This document shows positions 36,286-51,740 of a DNA stretch of 64,000 bases, piece after piece (the stretch's first letter is position 1; every line of letters begins with the position of its first letter). Under the pieces are notes generated by a model. The model worked only from the letters and a program-made list of their open reading frames with translations. It was not told the DNA's origin and searched no databases. Position numbers and translations under genes: made by a program. Source of the DNA: an uncultured Planctomycetota bacterium (GTDB taxonomy: Bacteria; Planctomycetota; Planctomycetia; Isosphaerales; Isosphaeraceae); contig CAWGMQ010000004.1 in NCBI GenBank assembly GCA_963823665.1, positions 2,656,001 through 2,720,000 of the forward strand, given 5' to 3'.

Positions 36286-37573
36286 GTGAACGGCTCGCTG
36301 GTGACCGACCTGGGTCTAAGTCCGGAAGTGTGGGTCTTTCTGTCGCTCTTGAGCTGCGTCACGCTCTTCTTCAAGTTCAGCCGGATCTGGAGCGTGAGGA
36401 ACCTTGATCTTGCTGCTGTTGTTCGTGCTGGCGCCGGGGATGATGCTGATCGTGAGCAACCCTGGGCATCACCCGTGGAGTGCGTACATCTGGCTTTTCC
36501 TGGGGTCAGGGCTTGTGGCTGATTCGCTGCTGGGCCGACCTCGGGCTAGCGCGGCGGCCGCTGCTCGAGCCGAATCTGAACTGCGTCGGGACTGCTGTGT
36601 CTTTCGGTGGGCGTGCTCAGCTTGCTGCTGGCCGAAACGATCAGCCTTCCGGTCGAGCAAGGAGGCGGGCGAAACCCGGCCGAGCCGTCGGGACGCGAGG
36701 ACCGCGGAAAGACGACGGGGGATGCGGCGGCCGTTCCTCTTGCGGAGATCCCGCAGGGGATCAAGGATTCGCTACCAGGGCCGCTCCAGAACAAGACGCC
36801 GCAAGTGATCGTCTCTCGCGTGCTCGCAAGTATAGCCCATCTGGGCCTGGTGCTCGGCCTGATCGGGATTGGCTGGCGGTTCTTCGACCGGCCGCTGACG
36901 GGAATTGCGATGGCTGCGTGCTATCTTCTGCTGCCGTACACGCGTATGGCGCTGGTCGATAGCGGCCAGCTCGTTCCTGCGGCGCTGATCGTCGCGGCCG
37001 TGTTCTGGCACAACCGCCCCGCGCTGGCGGGCGCATTGATCGGGCTGGCGGCGGGATGGGTGCCGGCGTGCCTGGGGTTGATCGCGCTCTGGTGTGGATT
37101 CTATCGACGACGTGGGGCGGTGCGATTCACAGCTTTGGCGGTGGCGGTGGTGGCCATCTGCGCGCTGGCAGGCTTCTGGGTGCCGGTGCTCAGCGAGTGG
37201 GCTCGCGCTCTGGGCGCACGAAGCATCGACGAGGTCGGGCTGTTTCCTCAGTTCGAGCCCAGGTCGAGCGGCAGCTTCTGGGTGAGCATCCACTTCGAGC
37301 TTCCGGCTCCCGGTTCTCATCGGCTATCTGGCTCTCGTGATACTCACGATGTTCTGGCCGGCCGACAAGAATATCGCCGAGCTGATCGCGTTATCGGCGG
37401 CCTTGCTGGTGGCCAGCCAGTTCTGGTATCTCGACAAGGGTGGAACGCTGGTCATGCTCTATCTTCCACTGGCGATCGCGATGATGTTCCGGCCGACGAT
37501 TGCCATCAAGAGAGCCGCTGCGCCGGCGCATCAGCGGCGGTCCAACCGCCCGTCGCTTTCACCTTCTTCGTGA
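36286..37573 (+). CDS. Multi-pass membrane protein, possibly GT-C fold (several frameshifts)
   Basis: Consecutive hydrophobic ORF fragments 36226-36522, 36404-, 36480-, 36607- and 37337-37573. Confidence 0.55.
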
Positions 37574-37625
37574 TGCCGCGACTACGAGTCGAACCCTGAA
37601 ATACCCACGGCGGAGCAAGTTTCTC

Positions 37626-38317
37626 ATGAGTTTTGTGCTGACCTACGACGCGATTGCCAAGCGGATCGACCATTCTCTGCTCGGCCCGGCGCTCACGACC
37701 GCGGAGATGGAGGAGGGGTGCCGGCTGGCTCGTCCGCTACGGGGTGGCGAGCGTTTGCATCAAACCGGGCGCAGTGGGCTTGGCGGCAGGCATTCTGAAG
37801 GGCTCGGGAGTGGCTGTGGGGACGACGATCGGCTTTCCACACGGAGGGCACACGACAAGCGTGAAGGTATTTGAAGCGCGGCAGACGATGGCCGACGGAG
37901 CGACCGAGCTGGACATGGTGATCAACATCGGCCAGGCGAGAGGTGGCGAATGGAATGCCGTGAGCCGCCGACATCGCGGCTGTGACCGCCGCGGCCCATG
38001 ACGGCGGCTCGATCGTGAAGGTGATTTTCGAGAATTGTTTTCTGAACGACGAGCAGAAGGTGCGACTTTGCCGAATCTGCGGTGACGTGGGGGCCGATTA
38101 CGTGAAGACGTCGACCGGCTACGGCACGGGGGGCGCCACGATGGACGATCTGAGACTGATGCGACGGTCTTCGCCGCCTCATGTGAAGCTGAAGGCAGCC
38201 GGCGGTCTTCGCACGCTGGACGCCATGATTGAAGCGGCCGAGCTGGGCTGCGACCGGATTGGTGCATCGCGGACGGCCGAGATTCTGGACGAGCTCAAGG
38301 TGCGGTTGGGGATGTGA
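37626..38317 (+). CDS. deoC: Deoxyribose-phosphate aldolase (two frameshifts)
   Basis: Motifs IDHSLL, IGFPHG, GATELDMVIN, VKVIFE, YVKTSTG, KAAGG and RIGAS. Confidence 0.92.
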
Positions 38318-44030: not shown

Positions 44031-44876
44031 ATGATGAGCTCGGACAAACTCAACATGATGAACGGCGGCAACGGTCTGGTGTGCCCTGCGCTGCGCGAAT
44101 GGACGCCTGGCGGCCCAGTCTCCGGACTGGACGGGGATGAGATCGGTGTGTGGGTGGTGGAGCTGGACGCTGGGCTCGAGAGCCAGGCGGAGATTGACGG
44201 GGCAGAGCCGGGCCGTGAGCTTAAGGTGCTCGATGCGGAGGAGCGGGCGCGAGCGGCACGGTTTGTGCGGGCGCGGGACCGCAGGCGGTTTGCTCGTTGC
44301 CGATCGGCGTTGCGCGAGATACTGGGCGGCCTGGTTTGTGAGCAGCCGGAGGCGCTGCGGTTCCGAGCTGTGGCGCGGGGCAAACCCGAGCTGGATTTCC
44401 CCAACATCGACGGGAGAGAGCCGCCTGTTCGATTCAACGTCTCTCATTCATCCGAGCTCGCGGTGATTGCGGTCTGTCGCAGCCGGGAGCTGGGGGTTGA
44501 CGTTGAGCAGGTCAGGGCTATCGGCGAAGCCGAGCGGATCGTGGAATCCTTTTTCTCAGCGAACGAGCTGGCTGAGTTCGGCAGGATTGGCCCCGAGAAG
44601 AAAGCGATGGCGTTCCTCCGGGGGTGGACGCGCAAAGAGGCAATCCTTAAAGGGTTAGGCGTCGGAATCGCGGGACTGGCGGACCGTCATGAGACGGGAT
44701 TCGGGACTGGTGAGGTCACGGCTCGATTCTCTCCGGCGCTGCCGAACTGGCGCGTTGGGGCGTGGCAGCTCTGGGAGGCGTCTCCGCGCAGTGGCTTCGT
44801 GGCAACCGTTGCGTGCCGGGTGGATGCGATGGATGGCGATGCTGCAAGGACTGGGGGGCCGAATTCATGTGGTTAG
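44031..44876 (+). CDS. Sfp-type 4'-phosphopantetheinyl transferase
   Basis: Motifs GKPEL, FNVSHS, LGVDVE and WTRKEAILKG. Confidence 0.92.
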   Translation: MMSSDKLNMMNGGNGLVCPALREWTPGGPVSGLDGDEIGVWVVELDAGLESQAEIDGAEPGRELKVLDAEERARAARFVRARDRRRFARCRSALREILGGLVCEQPEALRFRAVARGKPELDFPNIDGREPPVRFNVSHSSELAVIAVCRSRELGVDVEQVRAIGEAERIVESFFSANELAEFGRIGPEKKAMAFLRGWTRKEAILKGLGVGIAGLADRHETGFGTGEVTARFSPALPNWRVGAWQLWEASPRSGFVATVACRVDAMDGDAARTGGPNSCG

Positions 44877-45703
44877 TGTTCCTCGGTCTTTGCGTCCTGG
44901 CGATTTATGTCGTCATCCGCCTGATGACCAATCTGAGCGCGTGGATCACGGGTGCGCGGTATCGGGCGTACCGGCAGGTTGCGGCGCGGTATCGGGGGCG
45001 TTACGAGACGCGAGGGCTCTCCGACCCGCCAACGGTCAGTTTCACGCACAACGGCGCGACGGTGAGGGTGGGCCTGGCGCCGACGATTCAGGGCCAACCG
45101 GGCCAGATTCCACGCACTCGCGTAGTCGCGCGGTTTGGCCAGGGAATTCCGTTCCGCATGGAGCTGGCGCCGGTGGCGCGACCGGCACCGCCGCAGTCGC
45201 CGCGGGCGACCCGGCCCGTGACGACGGGTGACCGGGAATTCGACAACGGGTACGTGGTCCGGGCCAACGACGTGGAGATGTCTCGCGACTTCCTGAACTC
45301 AACGATTCGCTCCACGGTGGCCGGTTTACAGCAGTTGGTTCATCGTGGTGGGATGCTGATCTCGATCAATCCAGAGCGGATGCTCGTGCAGGTGGACCGC
45401 AATCTAGGGACGAGCACGGAGCATCTTGCGTGGGTGGTCGAGCAAGCCCTGGTGCTGCACGACCGCCTGATTGAATCGGTGACGCGGCGAATGGGCGAAG
45501 GGGTGGACATCGTCGAGGAAGCCGAATCGTGGCCGGAGGATCAGGGTACGCCCACGTGCAAGGTTTGCGGCGACCCGATTGACGAAAGTGAGATCATCGT
45601 GTGTGCATCGTGTAACACTCCGCACCATCGTAACTGCTGGGAGTACAACGGTAATGCTTGCTCGATCTATGGGTGCAACGGCAAGGTCGGTGTCAGGGAG
45701 TGA
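44867..45703 (+). CDS. Membrane-anchored prokaryotic RING-finger protein (candidate E3)
   Basis: N-terminal TM MWLVFLGLCVLAIYVVI; C-terminal CKVC-x11-CASC-x3-HHRNCWEY-x4-CSIYGC (Prok-RING_1-like C4HC3). Confidence 0.75.
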   Translation: MWLVFLGLCVLAIYVVIRLMTNLSAWITGARYRAYRQVAARYRGRYETRGLSDPPTVSFTHNGATVRVGLAPTIQGQPGQIPRTRVVARFGQGIPFRMELAPVARPAPPQSPRATRPVTTGDREFDNGYVVRANDVEMSRDFLNSTIRSTVAGLQQLVHRGGMLISINPERMLVQVDRNLGTSTEHLAWVVEQALVLHDRLIESVTRRMGEGVDIVEEAESWPEDQGTPTCKVCGDPIDESEIIVCASCNTPHHRNCWEYNGNACSIYGCNGKVGVRE

Positions 45704-45738: not shown

Positions 45739-46156
45739 ATGTCGAAAATGCGAGGAGCCCGGTGGCTGGCACCGGGTTTAGTTCTATTCGGTCTGCTGGT
45801 GGCCGGGGCGCCTTCGGCCGAGCCTTCGAAGGCCGAGGAGCGTCGGGAAAGCTCGACTTGAGGCGGCCAAAAAACAGTACGACGAAACCTGGGCGTACTA
45901 TCAGCAAGCCCGCATAGATTCCTATCAGGTTTATGTGTGGTCGCGCATCATGCTCGATTGCCGGCGGGAAATGGCGCCGAAGGCCGCCGACAGGCTGGTT
46001 GCGCTCGAGGAGCACCTGGCGCGGATGAAGAAGTTGGAGTCGCTGATTTCGCGGGTGCGCCGTCTGGGGTTTGGTCGTTCCTACGACGTAGGTGCTGCGG
46101 AATACTACCGATTGGAGGCAGAGCACTGGCTGGAGCTGGAACGTGCGCGTAAGTGA
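45739..46156 (+). CDS. Exported helical hypothetical protein (frameshift near 45845)
   Basis: Signal peptide MSKMRGARWLAPGLVLFGLLVAGA in one frame; helical domain RLEAAKKQYDETW...EAEHWLELERARK in another. Confidence 0.55.
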
Positions 46157-46325
46157 ACCGAGCAAAATCGGCGATAAGGAGTTTCGAGTTGGCGCGAAGA
46201 GCGTTATCCTGGTGGAAGGATCGCCGGACGGGTGATCTGGAGGCGAGCTGGGCTACTGAAAAGGCCGGGCTCTTCTCAATATTCAGCGGTGGCGGCCGAA
46301 GAGATGCTGAGGAGGTATACTGACC

Positions 46326-46628
46326 ATGTCATACGGCGGAACAGCCGATCCCAGCGGAATCCAGGTGACATTCCTGGACCAGACCGGCGCGAAGTCGGTC
46401 AAAGCGGTCATCGCCTTCAGCGTGCCCGTCAGCCGGATCATCCCCAATATCATTACCAAGATGAGTTTGCCCGCGACCAGTCCTGACGGGCAGCCGATGA
46501 GCTACTCCCTTGACCATAAAGAGGGTGGCCGGCGACTGCTTGAGAACTGGACGCTGGTTGAGGGGGGGGTCCAGAACGGCGACCACCTGATTGTGTATCC
46601 CGAGGTTGTAGCAGGACGGATTTGTTGA
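46326..46628 (+). CDS. Ubiquitin-like beta-grasp protein (EsaB/YukD-like) with C-terminal VVAG-RIC
   Basis: Strong GAGGAGG RBS; 'LLENWTLVEGGVQNGDHLIV' matches the ubiquitin-fold pattern L.E..TL...GV..GD.L.V; Gly97 is followed by a 3-aa tail. Confidence 0.85.
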   Translation: MSYGGTADPSGIQVTFLDQTGAKSVKAVIAFSVPVSRIIPNIITKMSLPATSPDGQPMSYSLDHKEGGRRLLENWTLVEGGVQNGDHLIVYPEVVAGRIC

Positions 46629-46752: not shown

Positions 46753-47610
46753 ATGTATCAATCTCCTCGCATGCGCCGCCTGCGAAACGATTTGGCGGCG
46801 CTAGAACGACTTCAATCGGAAAGCAGTGTCTTTCGCTTCAAAGCCCACGGCAAGCCGGCGCATCATTTCCTTATCCATTTAGTGGGTAAGAGTTTATACC
46901 GTTTGCGCGGCCAGGTGATGGCGCACGACGACCATCGCGTCGAGATCAAGCTCGGTGCGTCGTATCCGCGCACGATCCCGGAAATCCGCTGGATCACGCC
47001 GATCTATCACCCGAACATCTCCGAGATCGGGATGGTTTGCCTGGGTGGGTATGGAACGCACTGGGTGCCGAGCGTGCAGCTCGACGAGCTGTGCAACATG
47101 CTGTGGGACATGGCGCGGTATCACAACTACGACATCCGAAGCCCTTATAACCGAGATGCAGCGCTCTGGGTTGCGAGCCAGACGAAATTCCTGTTCCCGA
47201 CTGATCCACGACCGCTGCGAGACCTTCGGGCCGCGCTGGGCCGGGTCGAGCCAGCGATGGACGCGGCATCGGGGCCCAAGCATGCGGGGGGGGACGATCA
47301 CACGAACGGCTCGTCGAATTCGACTGCGAGTGATCCGGAGGGCGGCGAAACCACGCCGACTCGGGTTCGCCAGTTCATGAATCGCTATGGCGGCATTTTC
47401 GCCAAGAGTCCAGGCCGGCGGGGCGGTGATCAAGGCGAGCGGGCCGATGATCGAGACGAGATCACCAGGCCTGCTGCAGCGGGTTCGGCGCCGATCGCGA
47501 GCGCTGCGGCCGTGCCGCAGCGAGATGACGAAGAGATCATTCTTCTCGAGTCGGCCAGTGCGGCCGATCACAGGCGTGAGGGTGTCGACGGGATCACGTT
47601 CATCGAGTAA
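46753..47610 (+). CDS. Ubiquitin-conjugating enzyme E2 (UBC fold) with disordered acidic tail
   Basis: Helix 1 RRLRNDL; YPRTIPEIRWITPIYHPNISEIGMVCL (HPN 86-88, Cys96); SPYNRDAA. Confidence 0.9.
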   Translation: MYQSPRMRRLRNDLAALERLQSESSVFRFKAHGKPAHHFLIHLVGKSLYRLRGQVMAHDDHRVEIKLGASYPRTIPEIRWITPIYHPNISEIGMVCLGGYGTHWVPSVQLDELCNMLWDMARYHNYDIRSPYNRDAALWVASQTKFLFPTDPRPLRDLRAALGRVEPAMDAASGPKHAGGDDHTNGSSNSTASDPEGGETTPTRVRQFMNRYGGIFAKSPGRRGGDQGERADDRDEITRPAAAGSAPIASAAAVPQRDDEEIILLESASAADHRREGVDGITFIE

Positions 47611-47721: not shown

Positions 47722-48984
47722 ATGGCGGACGAGCGACCCATGGAATCAACCGGTCAAGCTCCGGCTCCCGGGGCGACCGGCGCCGGGCAGGGAGCGGAAG
47801 GCAATGCCCTTGCCAGTCCCATGGTCATCGACGACCAGGACCGGTACAGCAGCCTTCGATTGATCTCGTGGTGGCGGCAGGATCGGCTGCGCTCGGCGAG
47901 CGTGCTCGTCGTCGGCGCCGGGGCTCTGGGCAATGAGGTCATGAAGAACCTGGCTCTGCTCGGATTGGGGACGATCTACCTGGTCGACTTCGATACGATT
48001 GAAGCCTCAAATCTTTCGCGATCGGTTTTATTTCGCGATTCGGACGCCGGGCGCCCCAAGGCGATGGTGGCCGCACAGCGGGCGCGCGAGCTCAATCCGG
48101 AGGTGACGATCATACCGATTCACGGTGACGTCATCGTGGACATCGGACTGGGGCTCTTTCACGACGTTGATCTGGTGATCGGCTGCCTCGACAACCGGGA
48201 AGCCCGGCTGTGGGTGAATCGCCAGTGCTGGAAAACGGGCACGCCGTGGATCGATGCGGGCATTCAGGAGATTCAAGGGGTGGTCAAGGTTTTCGTCCCG
48301 CCGGATTCGTCATGCTACGAGTGCGCGATGACCGAGCGCGATTATCAGCTTCTCAACCGCCGGTATAGCTGCCCACTACTCTCACGCGATGAGATCCTCT
48401 CGGGCAAAGTGCCGACGGCCCCGACGATCGCTTCGATGATGGCGGCGCTTCAAGTACAGGAAGCGCTCAAGCTCTTGCACGGCATGCCGGTCGCTGCGGG
48501 ATCGGCTCTTGTGTACAACGGAGTAGCGAACCAGTTCTATTCCACGCGGTTACCGTTCCGGGACGACTGCTTGAGCCACGAGACCTACCCGGCGGCGGTT
48601 GAGCTTCCGCTGGGTCAGAAGCAGACGGTGCGGGAGCTTTTCGAGGCAGTGGGGCCACGTCTTGATGGCCGGCTGCACCTGGTGCTCGAGCGGGAGCTGG
48701 TTGTGGCGATCGAATGCCCGCGATGCGATTGGCGCAGGGAGGTGATGCGGCCGCGGGTGAAGGTGAAGTCATCGGAAGCCGAGTGCCCGAGCTGCCGGGA
48801 ACCAGCACGGCCAACGTTCGAGAGCGGCATCGAGGCGGATTCACCGCTTGTTGCTTGCTCGCTTTCGCGAGTTGGAATTCCACCTTACGATATCGTGAGG
48901 GTGGACGGGGAAAGCGAGTCGGGATTCTTCCTGCTGGCCGCTGATCGGGAAGACGGCAAGACGGGCTGGGGGTCAGGCGGTTGA
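47722..48984 (+). CDS. E1-like ubiquitin-activating enzyme (ThiF/MoeB/UBA family)
   Basis: GAGGAG RBS; motifs VVGAGALGNEVMKNLALLG, DFD, SNLSR, CLDNREAR, CYEC and YSC217; extra C-terminal CPRC/CPSC. Confidence 0.92.
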   Translation: MADERPMESTGQAPAPGATGAGQGAEGNALASPMVIDDQDRYSSLRLISWWRQDRLRSASVLVVGAGALGNEVMKNLALLGLGTIYLVDFDTIEASNLSRSVLFRDSDAGRPKAMVAAQRARELNPEVTIIPIHGDVIVDIGLGLFHDVDLVIGCLDNREARLWVNRQCWKTGTPWIDAGIQEIQGVVKVFVPPDSSCYECAMTERDYQLLNRRYSCPLLSRDEILSGKVPTAPTIASMMAALQVQEALKLLHGMPVAAGSALVYNGVANQFYSTRLPFRDDCLSHETYPAAVELPLGQKQTVRELFEAVGPRLDGRLHLVLERELVVAIECPRCDWRREVMRPRVKVKSSEAECPSCREPARPTFESGIEADSPLVACSLSRVGIPPYDIVRVDGESESGFFLLAADREDGKTGWGSGG

Positions 48985-50387
48985 ACGGCGATGAAATCAC
49001 TTTCGGCGATGTGCGGGTTCGCGAGCCGGAGCGGCGCGCGCGGCCGGATCGGGACCGGCGATTTGCATCCGTTGCCTATGAAGTGCCGGGCGCGGCCGAC
49101 CTGCCGATCTTTCTCGATCGCCGCGCGGCGGACGCGATCGAACGGCACGCTCTCTCCGACACGTCGGTCGAGCTGGGTGGAATTCTGCTGGGCAAGGAAT
49201 GCCTCGACACGGCAACTGGACAGGCTTTCGTGTGGGTGAATCAGTCGCTCGAGGCCAAACACTACGCGAATACTCAGGCCAGCTTCACTTATACTCACGA
49301 TTCATGGGAAGAGATCACTCGAGAGCGCGACCAGCGGTTTCCGCAGTACGACATCGTCGGCTGGTATCACACGCATCCCAACTTCGGAATCTTTCTCTCG
49401 CACCACGATTTATTTATTCATCACAACTTTTTTTCACAGGCACTGCAAGTTGCCTACGTTGTTGACCCAATCAACCAGACTCGCGGTTTTTTCCAGTGGC
49501 GCGACGGCGGAATGGCGCAGGTGCAGGGTTACTACCTCACGGCGGATCGCGGCGATCGGATAGCACTGGCGAGGCTTGCGAACGACCTCGAGCAGCTTCC
49601 GAATGCGGAAGGCGGCTCGGGGGGAGCCTTTTCACCTCGCCTCGAAGCGGAGCTGATCAAGATGCTTACAAGAACTGGGCAGCGCGACGTCCATTCGCCG
49701 GTTGAGAGACTCCAGTTTGCCACTGTCTATGGCCTACTGGGGATTTTCCTCGGCGTGATGGGGCTGGCCACCGTGCTCTGGCTGAGCCAGCTTCTGGGCC
49801 AGATTCAGGCGATGAAGGAATCGATTCAGACTCGAGCGCGTGTGGACGAGGAATCAGCCGCGCGCGTGCGGCTGATGAGTGACGCTTTGCTGGAGCGAGC
49901 GGTCAAGGACCCTGTTGACTTCGTCGCGTTGTACGAGAAGAAGAAAAAAGAGCTAGATGACGTAGAGAAGCGAGCGGGAAGCTTAAGCACTTCAGTCGTA
50001 GAACTCGGGAGGGATCTGAAGCGCGAGCAGAAAGACAACGAGCGTCTGGTCAAGGAGCTTTCCGTTTCGAACGAGAAACTCGTGAAGGCCGAGGAGAAAG
50101 CCGCTGGAGCGGCGGAACTGAACTCGCGGGTTGTGGAGGTGGAAAAAGAGCGGGACACGCAGCAGCAGGAGCTCGCGGAGCTGAAGGAGCGGATAGACCC
50201 CGAAACCGGCCAAGTTGCTCTGGCAATGAAGCGCAAGCTGGATCGCACCCAATACATGATGTATGGGGGCTGGGCGTGCAGCGCGTTTCTCGGTGTCGCA
50301 ATCGCGGCCGCGTACTTCCTGCTCAAACCCGTTCCGAGCGTCCCCCTTGAGGATGACAAAGAGCGTCCCGCGCACCGGATCGAGTAA
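48981..50387 (+). CDS. JAB/MPN+ (JAMM) isopeptidase fused to TM-coiled coil-TM
   Basis: TTG start overlaps the E1 stop; ELGG and WYHTHP-x4-FLSHHD JAMM motif; two hydrophobic helices flank a long heptad region. Confidence 0.88.
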   Translation: MNGDEITFGDVRVREPERRARPDRDRRFASVAYEVPGAADLPIFLDRRAADAIERHALSDTSVELGGILLGKECLDTATGQAFVWVNQSLEAKHYANTQASFTYTHDSWEEITRERDQRFPQYDIVGWYHTHPNFGIFLSHHDLFIHHNFFSQALQVAYVVDPINQTRGFFQWRDGGMAQVQGYYLTADRGDRIALARLANDLEQLPNAEGGSGGAFSPRLEAELIKMLTRTGQRDVHSPVERLQFATVYGLLGIFLGVMGLATVLWLSQLLGQIQAMKESIQTRARVDEESAARVRLMSDALLERAVKDPVDFVALYEKKKKELDDVEKRAGSLSTSVVELGRDLKREQKDNERLVKELSVSNEKLVKAEEKAAGAAELNSRVVEVEKERDTQQQELAELKERIDPETGQVALAMKRKLDRTQYMMYGGWACSAFLGVAIAAAYFLLKPVPSVPLEDDKERPAHRIE

Positions 50388-50411: not shown

Positions 50412-51740
50412 ATGATGGGGGTTCGCAGAAACAATCGGTTGCTGCTGTGCTTCGTCACCCTTGCGGCCGTTCTTGTGGCGGCGGGGGCGTTCACGCTCGT
50501 TCGGGCGCAAACAGCCGCAGACGGTCAGCGCACCGCGTCTCGAGCCGGTGAAATTGAACCGGTACCCGTTCCGGAAGCGAGCGCGCGCGCTCTTGAGTTT
50601 TACTGGAGCGGAAACAGGCTCTGGATCCTGAATGTTGCCTGGGCAATGACGCTTCCGGGCTTGATGGCGTTTTCGGGTTTTTCTGCGCGGCTGCGGAACT
50701 TGGCAGCAAGGTTGGGGCGAGTGAGGTTCGTCACGCTTGGCCTGTACGTGCTGATGTATCTGGCGATCGTCTTCCTGGTCGACCTGCCGCTGTCTTACTA
50801 CGAAGGCTACGTGCGGCTGCATGCGTACGGACTTTCCAATCAGACGCTTGGCAAGTGGTTCGGCGATTCGGTCATCCGGTTGGCAATCTCGATGGTGGCG
50901 GGCGTCGCTCTGGCCTGGGTTCCTTATCTTTTGATTGCTCGCAGCCCGAAGCGCTGGTGGTTGTATACGGCGGTGCTCTCAGTACCGTTTCTGTTCGCGG
51001 TCATGTTGATCAAGCCAATCTGGATCGATCCGCTCTTCAATCGGTTTGGGCCGATGCACGACCTCGATCTCGAGCAGCAAATACTGAAACTAGCACGGAA
51101 GGCGGAAATTGCTGCGGACCGGGTGTTCGAGGTTGAAAAGAGCGTCGATACCAAGGCGGTGAACGCGTATGTGACGGGTGTGTTTGCGACAAAGAGAATC
51201 GTTCTCTGGGATACCTTGCTGGCCAAGCTGGACGCGCCGGAAGTGCTGCATGTGATGGGCCATGAAATGGGGCATTACGCCCTGGGACATGTGGTCCGTT
51301 CCATCGTTCTATCGGCCGGGCTCACGCTTGTTGGACTTTTCCTGGTTGATTGGGCGGGGCGCAAGCTGGTCGGCCGATTTGCAGGTCGACTCGGATTCGA
51401 GCGGCTTTCGGACGTTGCCTCGCTGCCGCTCGTGCTCTTGCTACTCGAAGTTGCGATGTTCGTGCTGACACCCGTTGCGCTAGCATACAGCCGACATCAG
51501 GAGCACGAGGCGGATAAGTACGCGCTCGATCTCGTTAGAGACAATCACTCGGGCGCCTTGTCGTTCGTGAAGTTGATGGAAACGAACCTCAGCAATCCGC
51601 GGCCGGGGCCAATTTACAAGTTTTTCCGCTCAAGTCACCCGAGCATCGGCGAACGAATTGACTTCTGCAACAGCTATCGGCCGCCGCGATCAAGCGAGTC
51701 TAAGCGGGGCGAAGAAGAGCCGCGTTATCGATCGAATTAA
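50412..51740 (+). CDS. M48 family (Ste24-like) membrane metalloprotease
   Basis: Motifs NAYVTG, RIVLWDTLL, HEMGH, EHEAD and SHPSIGERI; includes the N-terminal M48_N region. Confidence 0.92.
   Translation: MMGVRRNNRLLLCFVTLAAVLVAAGAFTLVRAQTAADGQRTASRAGEIEPVPVPEASARALEFYWSGNRLWILNVAWAMTLPGLMAFSGFSARLRNLAARLGRVRFVTLGLYVLMYLAIVFLVDLPLSYYEGYVRLHAYGLSNQTLGKWFGDSVIRLAISMVAGVALAWVPYLLIARSPKRWWLYTAVLSVPFLFAVMLIKPIWIDPLFNRFGPMHDLDLEQQILKLARKAEIAADRVFEVEKSVDTKAVNAYVTGVFATKRIVLWDTLLAKLDAPEVLHVMGHEMGHYALGHVVRSIVLSAGLTLVGLFLVDWAGRKLVGRFAGRLGFERLSDVASLPLVLLLLEVAMFVLTPVALAYSRHQEHEADKYALDLVRDNHSGALSFVKLMETNLSNPRPGPIYKFFRSSHPSIGERIDFCNSYRPPRSSESKRGEEEPRYRSN

Follow-up and report, generated by a model that had tools for sequence, protein, structure and literature searches.

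Can a membrane protein that ends in a RING-type zinc finger, encoded just ahead of a bacterial ubiquitin-like (Ubl) conjugation locus, be regarded as the E3 of that locus? This question is raised by an open reading frame (ORF) of 278 aa at 44867..45703 on the forward strand of a 64,000-nucleotide stretch of DNA (here called the window, whose numbering is used throughout) from an uncultured planctomycete of the family Isosphaeraceae. Reportedly, Burroughs, Iyer and Aravind predicted in 2011 that Prok-RING_1 proteins are the E3s of bacterial Ubl/E1/E2/JAB operons. This prediction is cited in the available text of two further papers (PMC7159879, PMC3417536), and an initial sequence-only reading had suggested that the ORF encodes a membrane E3 which recruits the neighbouring E2 to membrane substrates.

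Gene product and membrane anchor

The gene product combines an N-terminal transmembrane (TM) helix, a domain of predicted TtfA/CCDC47-like fold and a C-terminal Prok-RING_1 finger. One hydrophobic helix is present, comprising residues 3-21 (44873..44929, forward strand; mean Kyte-Doolittle value 2.47), which has the character of a signal anchor and is followed by an Arg-rich stretch. An N-terminal TM is shared by 119/120 close relatives and by 82 of the 98 distant ones (the latter of length >=220, ids P0159-P0270), and Lys/Arg residues are more numerous after than before the helix in 119/119 close relatives and in 79 of the 82 distant ones having a TM. Due to this positive-inside charge bias, the chain following the helix would be cytoplasmic (N-out/C-in). 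ORF, single N-terminal TM and Cys/His motif had been read correctly from the sequence, the motif to the letter. The gene overlaps the end of a PPTase gene in the window. A model of the full-length protein reached a mean pLDDT of 89.0 and a pTM of 0.69.

A homologue search with the 278-aa protein yielded 739 proteins among 1421 candidates, with the Prok-RING_1 family (PF14446) present in 120/120 of those listed, and a search with the protein's profile yielded 3064 representatives at E <=0.001, and an NCBIfam search placed the protein in no family. Each of the 19 named related loci carries a title from Planctomycetota or one of its subgroups, in many cases Isosphaeraceae. Within the family, the gene is near-core and essentially single-copy (73 of 80 genomes), and the protein has a median identity of 55% to the window copy across 35 family loci. 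Elsewhere, single genomes of family f72 (G292, G386 and G387) match the protein's profile up to 10 times, and genomes of family f23 hold 18-21 or more Prok-RING_1 matches together with one E2.

A C4HC3 finger of the Prok-RING_1 family

The finger (C231-C270; 45557..45676, forward strand) reads CKVC-x11-CASC-x3-HHRNCW-x6-C-x4-C, with C231, C234, C246, C249, H254, C257, C265 and C270 as ligands in C4HC3 order, an order described for prokaryotic RINGs in the available part of PMC11354881. Its PF14446 match of 39.3 bits (E 6e-10) lies above the Pfam gathering cut-off of 29.1 bits; the family is matched by 124/124 aligned relatives, and the eight-ligand pattern is kept in 118/120 close and 91/98 distant relatives. 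The association of prokaryotic RING domains with Ub-like operons, on which the sequence-only reading had drawn, applies here to a member of a catalogued family with Ubl, E1, E2 and JAB genes adjoining.

A model of the finger alone (pLDDT 85) aligned with RINGs over 48-63 columns (TMq about 0.5-0.68) and with most PHDs over only 31-35 columns. Within the best 50 rows of a structural search, RING/U-box and ZZ domains tie at Z 4.4-6.1: about 30 rows are titled RING, U-box or E3 and two ZZ, and about seven more within the same Z range are presumably ZZ as well. Foldseek matches of the finger alone were weak, all with E above 0.08 and none at 0.001.

The best-surviving alternative to an E3 has its place here, namely that the finger does not activate an E2 but is a ZZ-, PHD- or C1-like structural or reader module on a TtfA-like membrane chaperone, the link with the Ubl operon being non-catalytic or partly historical. 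This reading, which we consider unlikely, gains from the ZZ domains standing level with RINGs (Z 5.0-6.0), from weak Pfam matches of family members to C1_1 (94/124) and PHD (84/124) and from the annotation of one named orthologue as a phorbol-ester/DAG-type domain. However, the hallmarks of the three domain types are missing. In ZZ domains, the N-degron pocket is acidic and the two terminal ligands are His; PHD fingers have a Trp two positions ahead of ligand 7, and C1 domains an N-terminal His ligand. The finger instead carries C-K-V-C and C-N-T-P-H-H without the ZZ pocket aspartates and has Cys as terminal ligands; the position two before ligand 7 is N/G rather than Trp; and no C1-type His is present 12 residues ahead of C231, the set of ligands having an eighth Cys in its place. 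In Pfam, PHD scored 18.1 bits (cut-off 24) and C1 15.9 bits (cut-off 26.5), and neither PHD nor C1 appears in a title among the best 50 structural matches. A PDB sequence search with the protein gave only weak C1 and PHD matches, the best at E 0.01.

A predicted TtfA/CCDC47-type middle domain

Between anchor and finger lies an alpha/beta domain (residues ~29-211; 44951..45499, forward strand), of which the sequence-only reading had given size and place correctly but no assignment, while its fold is now predicted to be of the type found in TtfA (Z 15.0) and CCDC47 (Z 11-13). The model of residues 29-210 aligned with TtfA over 160 residues (rmsd 3.9, 11% identity). The 7tut translocon chains are taken here to be CCDC47; TM plus globular domain matched chain 7tut_4 with Z 12.6 (rmsd 8.7, 197 residues aligned) and chain 9i78_4 with Z 10.8 (rmsd 8.1, 202 aligned). 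Chain 9i78_4 starts at residue 76, as does the CCDC47 model in the available part of PMC12572126. Secretion-chaperone/YbjN-like folds ranked below TtfA and the translocon chains (Z <=7.8), and Foldseek concurred on the TtfA/CCDC47 likeness (E 1e-6, 2e-4 and 8e-4). Only a weak DUF3137 match was seen at the sequence level, and an Atlas search with residues 25-215 gave scores all <0.9, whose nearest named clusters (DUF3156, TtfA, DUF3137) serve as a lead only. The likeness to CCDC47 is structural only, since the Pfam model PF07946 found no match anywhere in the genome at E 1. The predicted fold is a new assignment, and a literature search found no paper treating TtfA together with CCDC47 or DUF3137. 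A paralogue of the middle domain (200 aa, no TM or RING evident) is encoded elsewhere in the same genome on the minus strand (G000:C10:582458-582826).

A shared fold of this type by itself shows no function. Mycobacterial TtfA (PDB 6t84) has, according to the available text of PMC6593404, an N-terminal TM at residues 2-24, compared to 3-21 here, ahead of the cytoplasmic fold predicted for our protein, and its partner is the multipass transporter MmpL3. Unlike the window protein, TtfA is devoid of a RING; it takes part in the transport of trehalose monomycolate, its role being called still unknown in the available part of a review (PMC10171966). CCDC47, a human translocon factor (multipass and SND3 translocons; 7tut, 9i78, 6w6l), likewise combines a TM with a globular domain, which in the accessible text of PMC7505659 and PMC12572126 is accompanied by a ribosome-binding coiled-coil/latch in the position occupied by the RING in the window protein; 197-202 residues align, yet at an rmsd of 8-9 Å and 5-11% identity. 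At the multipass translocon, the globular domain of CCDC47 is in contact with the ribosome (PMC7505659, available part).

The adjoining Ubl system

Downstream of the RING gene follows a small signal-peptide-type gene (45739..46156, forward strand), which is frameshifted in the assembly and intact in 5/5 relatives inspected; it codes for a helical protein whose C-terminal 73 aa found no match in Pfam. The gene is present at only 7 of 19 related loci, and membership in the system is not supported. In the window, apparently split genes are also seen by eye at 36404-38317 (genes for a membrane protein and for a deoxyribose-phosphate aldolase-like protein, broken across frames), suggesting indel errors in the assembly. 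The small gene and a gap of 169 bp separate the RING gene from the Ubl start (46326), in agreement with the one small gene and about 170 bp counted earlier.

Within this gap, an AATAWH-N13-CGAA element (46278..46300, forward strand) sits 44-50 nt 5' of the Ubl start; it occurs at 45/45 Ubl loci, at most once in shuffles, and genome-wide 160 times compared to 64 matches of a reversed control. The element is promoter-like and possibly an alternative-sigma promoter, and a sigma-70 scan gave 0 sites. It was found in 0/32 regions upstream of RING genes, a point against the E3 reading; hence, a single promoter shared by RING and Ubl is not indicated.

The YukD-type Ubl (46326..46628, forward strand) ends in PEVVAG plus a short variable tail, on account of which it is read as a JAB-processed pro-form. 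Its median identity to the window copy is 88% across 35 loci, compared to 68% for the E2 and 69% for the E1. The E2 (46753..47610, forward strand) exhibits a YP loop 4, HPN, the catalytic C96 and a WVPS loop 7: Y71-P72, H86-P87-N88, C96 and W104 are kept in 53/53 rows and P106 in 51/53. Its closest solved relatives are Ubc13/UBE2N (E 5e-15); where Ubc13 has Met in loop 4, 47 of 53 rows have Arg, which counts against the E3 reading. A ThiF-family E1 (47722..48984, forward strand) with GxGxxG and two CxxC motifs is followed by a JAB peptidase (48981..50387, forward strand) with HxH-x7-S-x2-D and two hydrophobic helices. A Ste24-like M48 membrane protease (50412-51740), located directly 3' of the JAB gene in many family loci, is not supported as a system member, as homologues remain in 5/5 genomes without the Ubl system. 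Further flanking genes encode the PPTase and a quinone oxidoreductase-type protein.

A second Ubl/E1/JAB/E2 locus lies about 230 kb away in the same genome (G000:C4, about 2467-2475 kb; L063:2232-10134). It comprises a Ubl that continues into a fused zinc ribbon and TM tail, an E1, a JAB, an FHA protein, a zinc-ribbon TM protein and an E2, together with two Prok-RING TM proteins, one of them with DUF4190 and trypsin domains, which both carry the RING ahead of their TM helices. Due to this second locus, the adjacent E2 can only be called the candidate partner of the window RING.

Co-inheritance of RING and E2

The connection to the Ubl and E2 genes, which the sequence-only reading had called uncertain, turned out stronger than assumed when the proposed co-occurrence check was made. 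In a family sample of 80 genomes, 73 have the RING and 71 the E2 gene: 70 hold both, three the RING only, one the E2 only and six neither. The four single-gene genomes are all assemblies of 590-980 contigs, and the six without either gene all belong to genus g236; these six absences count as a single loss. In five of the six searched further, neither Ubl nor RING profile was found (0/5 each) and the E1 search met only distant ThiF paralogues (33-36%, adenylation domain), though the flanking genes are represented in 5/5 by PPTase-like and M48 homologues. In 38 of the 70 genomes (26 of 38 genera) and in 14 of 19 named loci, the E2 shares the strand of the RING and lies at most 3 kb downstream of it. 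In the other 32 genomes, the two genes are apart: 10 times they share a contig but are distant or inverted, and 22 times their contigs differ; some of these genomes are complete chromosomes, a circumstance counted against the E3 reading.

In a second family (f3, n = 24, from a class sample of 200 genomes), 12 genomes have the RING gene, nine the E2 and eight both. In 8 of the 12 RING carriers, the RING ends a row Ubl-E2-JAB-E1-JAB-E2*-RING (seven seen whole, one partly), in which E2*, directly 5' of the RING, is devoid of the catalytic Cys. Such a Cys-less E2 is reminiscent of a Ubc13-Mms2-type pair. An exception to co-occurrence is genus g8 of this family, in which 4/4 genomes (97-99% complete) keep a full-length RING gene and the E2 search was negative; this counts against an E3 and for a finger with a non-catalytic role.

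Across a phylum sample of 300 genomes, the E2 occurs in 16/18 genomes with a match to the RING protein and in 19/282 without, whereby related genomes are not independent. For the Prok-RING_1 domain, the corresponding counts at E 1e-7 are 29/34 and 6/266, and those at E 1e-3 are 33/64 and 2/236. Of the two genomes with E2 matches and no RING match, one was inspected and its E2 was found to be without Cys. The RING is tied to the Ubl/E2/E1/JAB system by shared occurrence, by common loss and by linkage, the last in two gene orders; common loss and linkage suit an E2 partner and count against a purely structural finger. The evidence for co-inheritance of RING and E2 is unusually strong.

Residues at the putative E2 face

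In eukaryotic RINGs, the E2-contact Trp is located four positions after ligand 6 (W408 in c-Cbl), albeit not universally. The Trp to which the sequence-only reading had assigned this contact, W258, directly follows ligand 6 (+1) instead of standing at +4. It is invariant in 118/118 close and 91/91 distant relatives and is also kept in the g8 genomes. At +4, the window protein has N and 108 of 118 close relatives have V. By comparison, Y260 at +3 is Tyr in 118/118 close relatives, and V233, which lies between ligands 1 and 2 and is hydrophobic as in RING E3s, is V in 118/118 close and V/I in 90/91 distant relatives. The usual Arg after ligand 8 is replaced by N in 102/118 close relatives, and only 14 of 91 distant ones have R/K there; the missing Arg linchpin is counted against an E3 and in favour of a non-catalytic finger.

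Genus g8 retains all eight ligands and the Trp in 4/4 genomes, while the V233 site is changed to Ala (4/4) and the Y260 site to Pro, Ala or Lys (4/4). In contrast, the RINGs of the eight E2-bearing f3 genomes have kept V/I and Tyr (11/11). This pattern, behind which stands a single lineage, is suggestive only: W258 is likely structural, and V233 and Y260 are candidate E2-facing residues.

Comparison with known systems

The protein resembles the Prok-RING_1 operon proteins in its Pfam match, C4HC3 order, membrane anchor and adjoining YukD-type Ubl, E1, E2 and JAB genes. It differs from the two other Prok-RING proteins of its genome in that the RING is C-terminal and placed after the TtfA/CCDC47-like domain. 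A similar setting is provided by the RING E3 srfp of Caldiarchaeum subterraneum, which according to the available part of PMC5654768 has its own Ub, E1, E2 and JAB and a tailed pro-Ubl; the loop-4/loop-7 motifs of the E2s are also comparable (PY and PS in Caldiarchaeum, YP and PS in the window). As described there, srfp is a small RING-H2 in which I30, W58 and R69 were tested and R69 matters. In contrast, the window protein is membrane-anchored and its finger C4HC3; V occupies the loop position, and counterparts of the Trp and Arg are missing.

The Bil and Bub systems (PMC11601596, available text) are also bacterial Ubl conjugation systems equipped with E1, E2 and JAB peptidase. As far as that text goes, Bil operons are without an E3, whereas the window system has a RING, and Bub uses Tyr/Ser oxyesters, whereas the window E2 is canonical with HPN and Cys.

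Proposed function

Taken together, the membrane-anchored Prok-RING_1 protein is probably (at roughly 65%) the E3 of the adjacent YukD-Ubl/E1/E2/JAB system, acting at the cytoplasmic face of the inner membrane and likely tagging membrane proteins. Of the membrane E3 proposed from the sequence, the RING-type finger, its predicted cytoplasmic orientation and the tie to the system stand, while the Trp contact is not supported. Mechanistically, JAB would trim the pro-Ubl after PEVVAG, as suggested by the variable tail, and the Ubl would then be activated by E1 and passed to C96 of the E2, a chemistry that is established and whose motifs are present. The RING would dock on loops 4 and 7 of the E2, probably via V233, Y260 and S266-I267 and not via W258. 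In the weakest step, argued from fold and topology, the TtfA/CCDC47-like domain may hold cytoplasmic parts of inner-membrane proteins as Ubl acceptors, and the membrane-anchored JAB would remove the tag. Tentatively, and with rather low odds, this might serve a housekeeping, ERAD-like quality control in which, at or close to the translocon, a RING with CCDC47/TtfA fold attaches the highly conserved Ubl to misfolded or stalled inner-membrane proteins and the membrane JAB reverses the tagging.

It is clearly improbable that the protein is the E3 of a Bil-like phage-defence or conflict module, with its middle domain serving as a membrane receptor for invader proteins. Bil attaches its Ubl to phage proteins (PMC11601596), mobile Ubl operons have been proposed as selfish or conflict elements (PMC3417536, both in their available parts), and the many unlinked paralogues in f72 and f23 genomes are as expected of variable receptors. 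However, an essentially single-copy gene, the high, housekeeping-like conservation of the Ubl across the family and neighbours such as PPTase, quinone oxidoreductase-type gene and M48 protease do not fit this role; moreover, PADLOC, including its Bil/CBASS models for Ubl and E2, matched neither RING, Ubl nor E2 and gave only generic E1 and JAB matches. That the gene stands next to the Ubl operon through an accident of inheritance and has no functional tie to the system, for which the 32 unlinked genomes, the separate upstream control and the overlap with the PPTase gene could be cited, is very improbable in view of the joint absence in g236, where flanking-type genes remain, and the linkage in another gene order in f3.

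Implications

The window protein is a real member of a predicted and, experimentally, apparently unstudied class, with a new domain assignment. A literature search that reached few subscription papers found no experiment demonstrating that a bacterium modifies its own proteins through an E1-E2-RING cascade, nor a report of a TM, TtfA/CCDC47-like and RING architecture; the Burroughs papers of 2011/2012 and their supplements, which lay outside the search, may show the latter. With a compact system, residue-level predictions and a candidate substrate-binding domain at hand, the E3 prediction of 2011 is now directly testable. The system occurs in nearly all genomes of a family of which some members are in culture, the named records including Isosphaera pallida (Isop_3287) and Tundrisphaera lichenicola, and it may have a bearing on the origins of CCDC47 and of membrane-linked ubiquitination.
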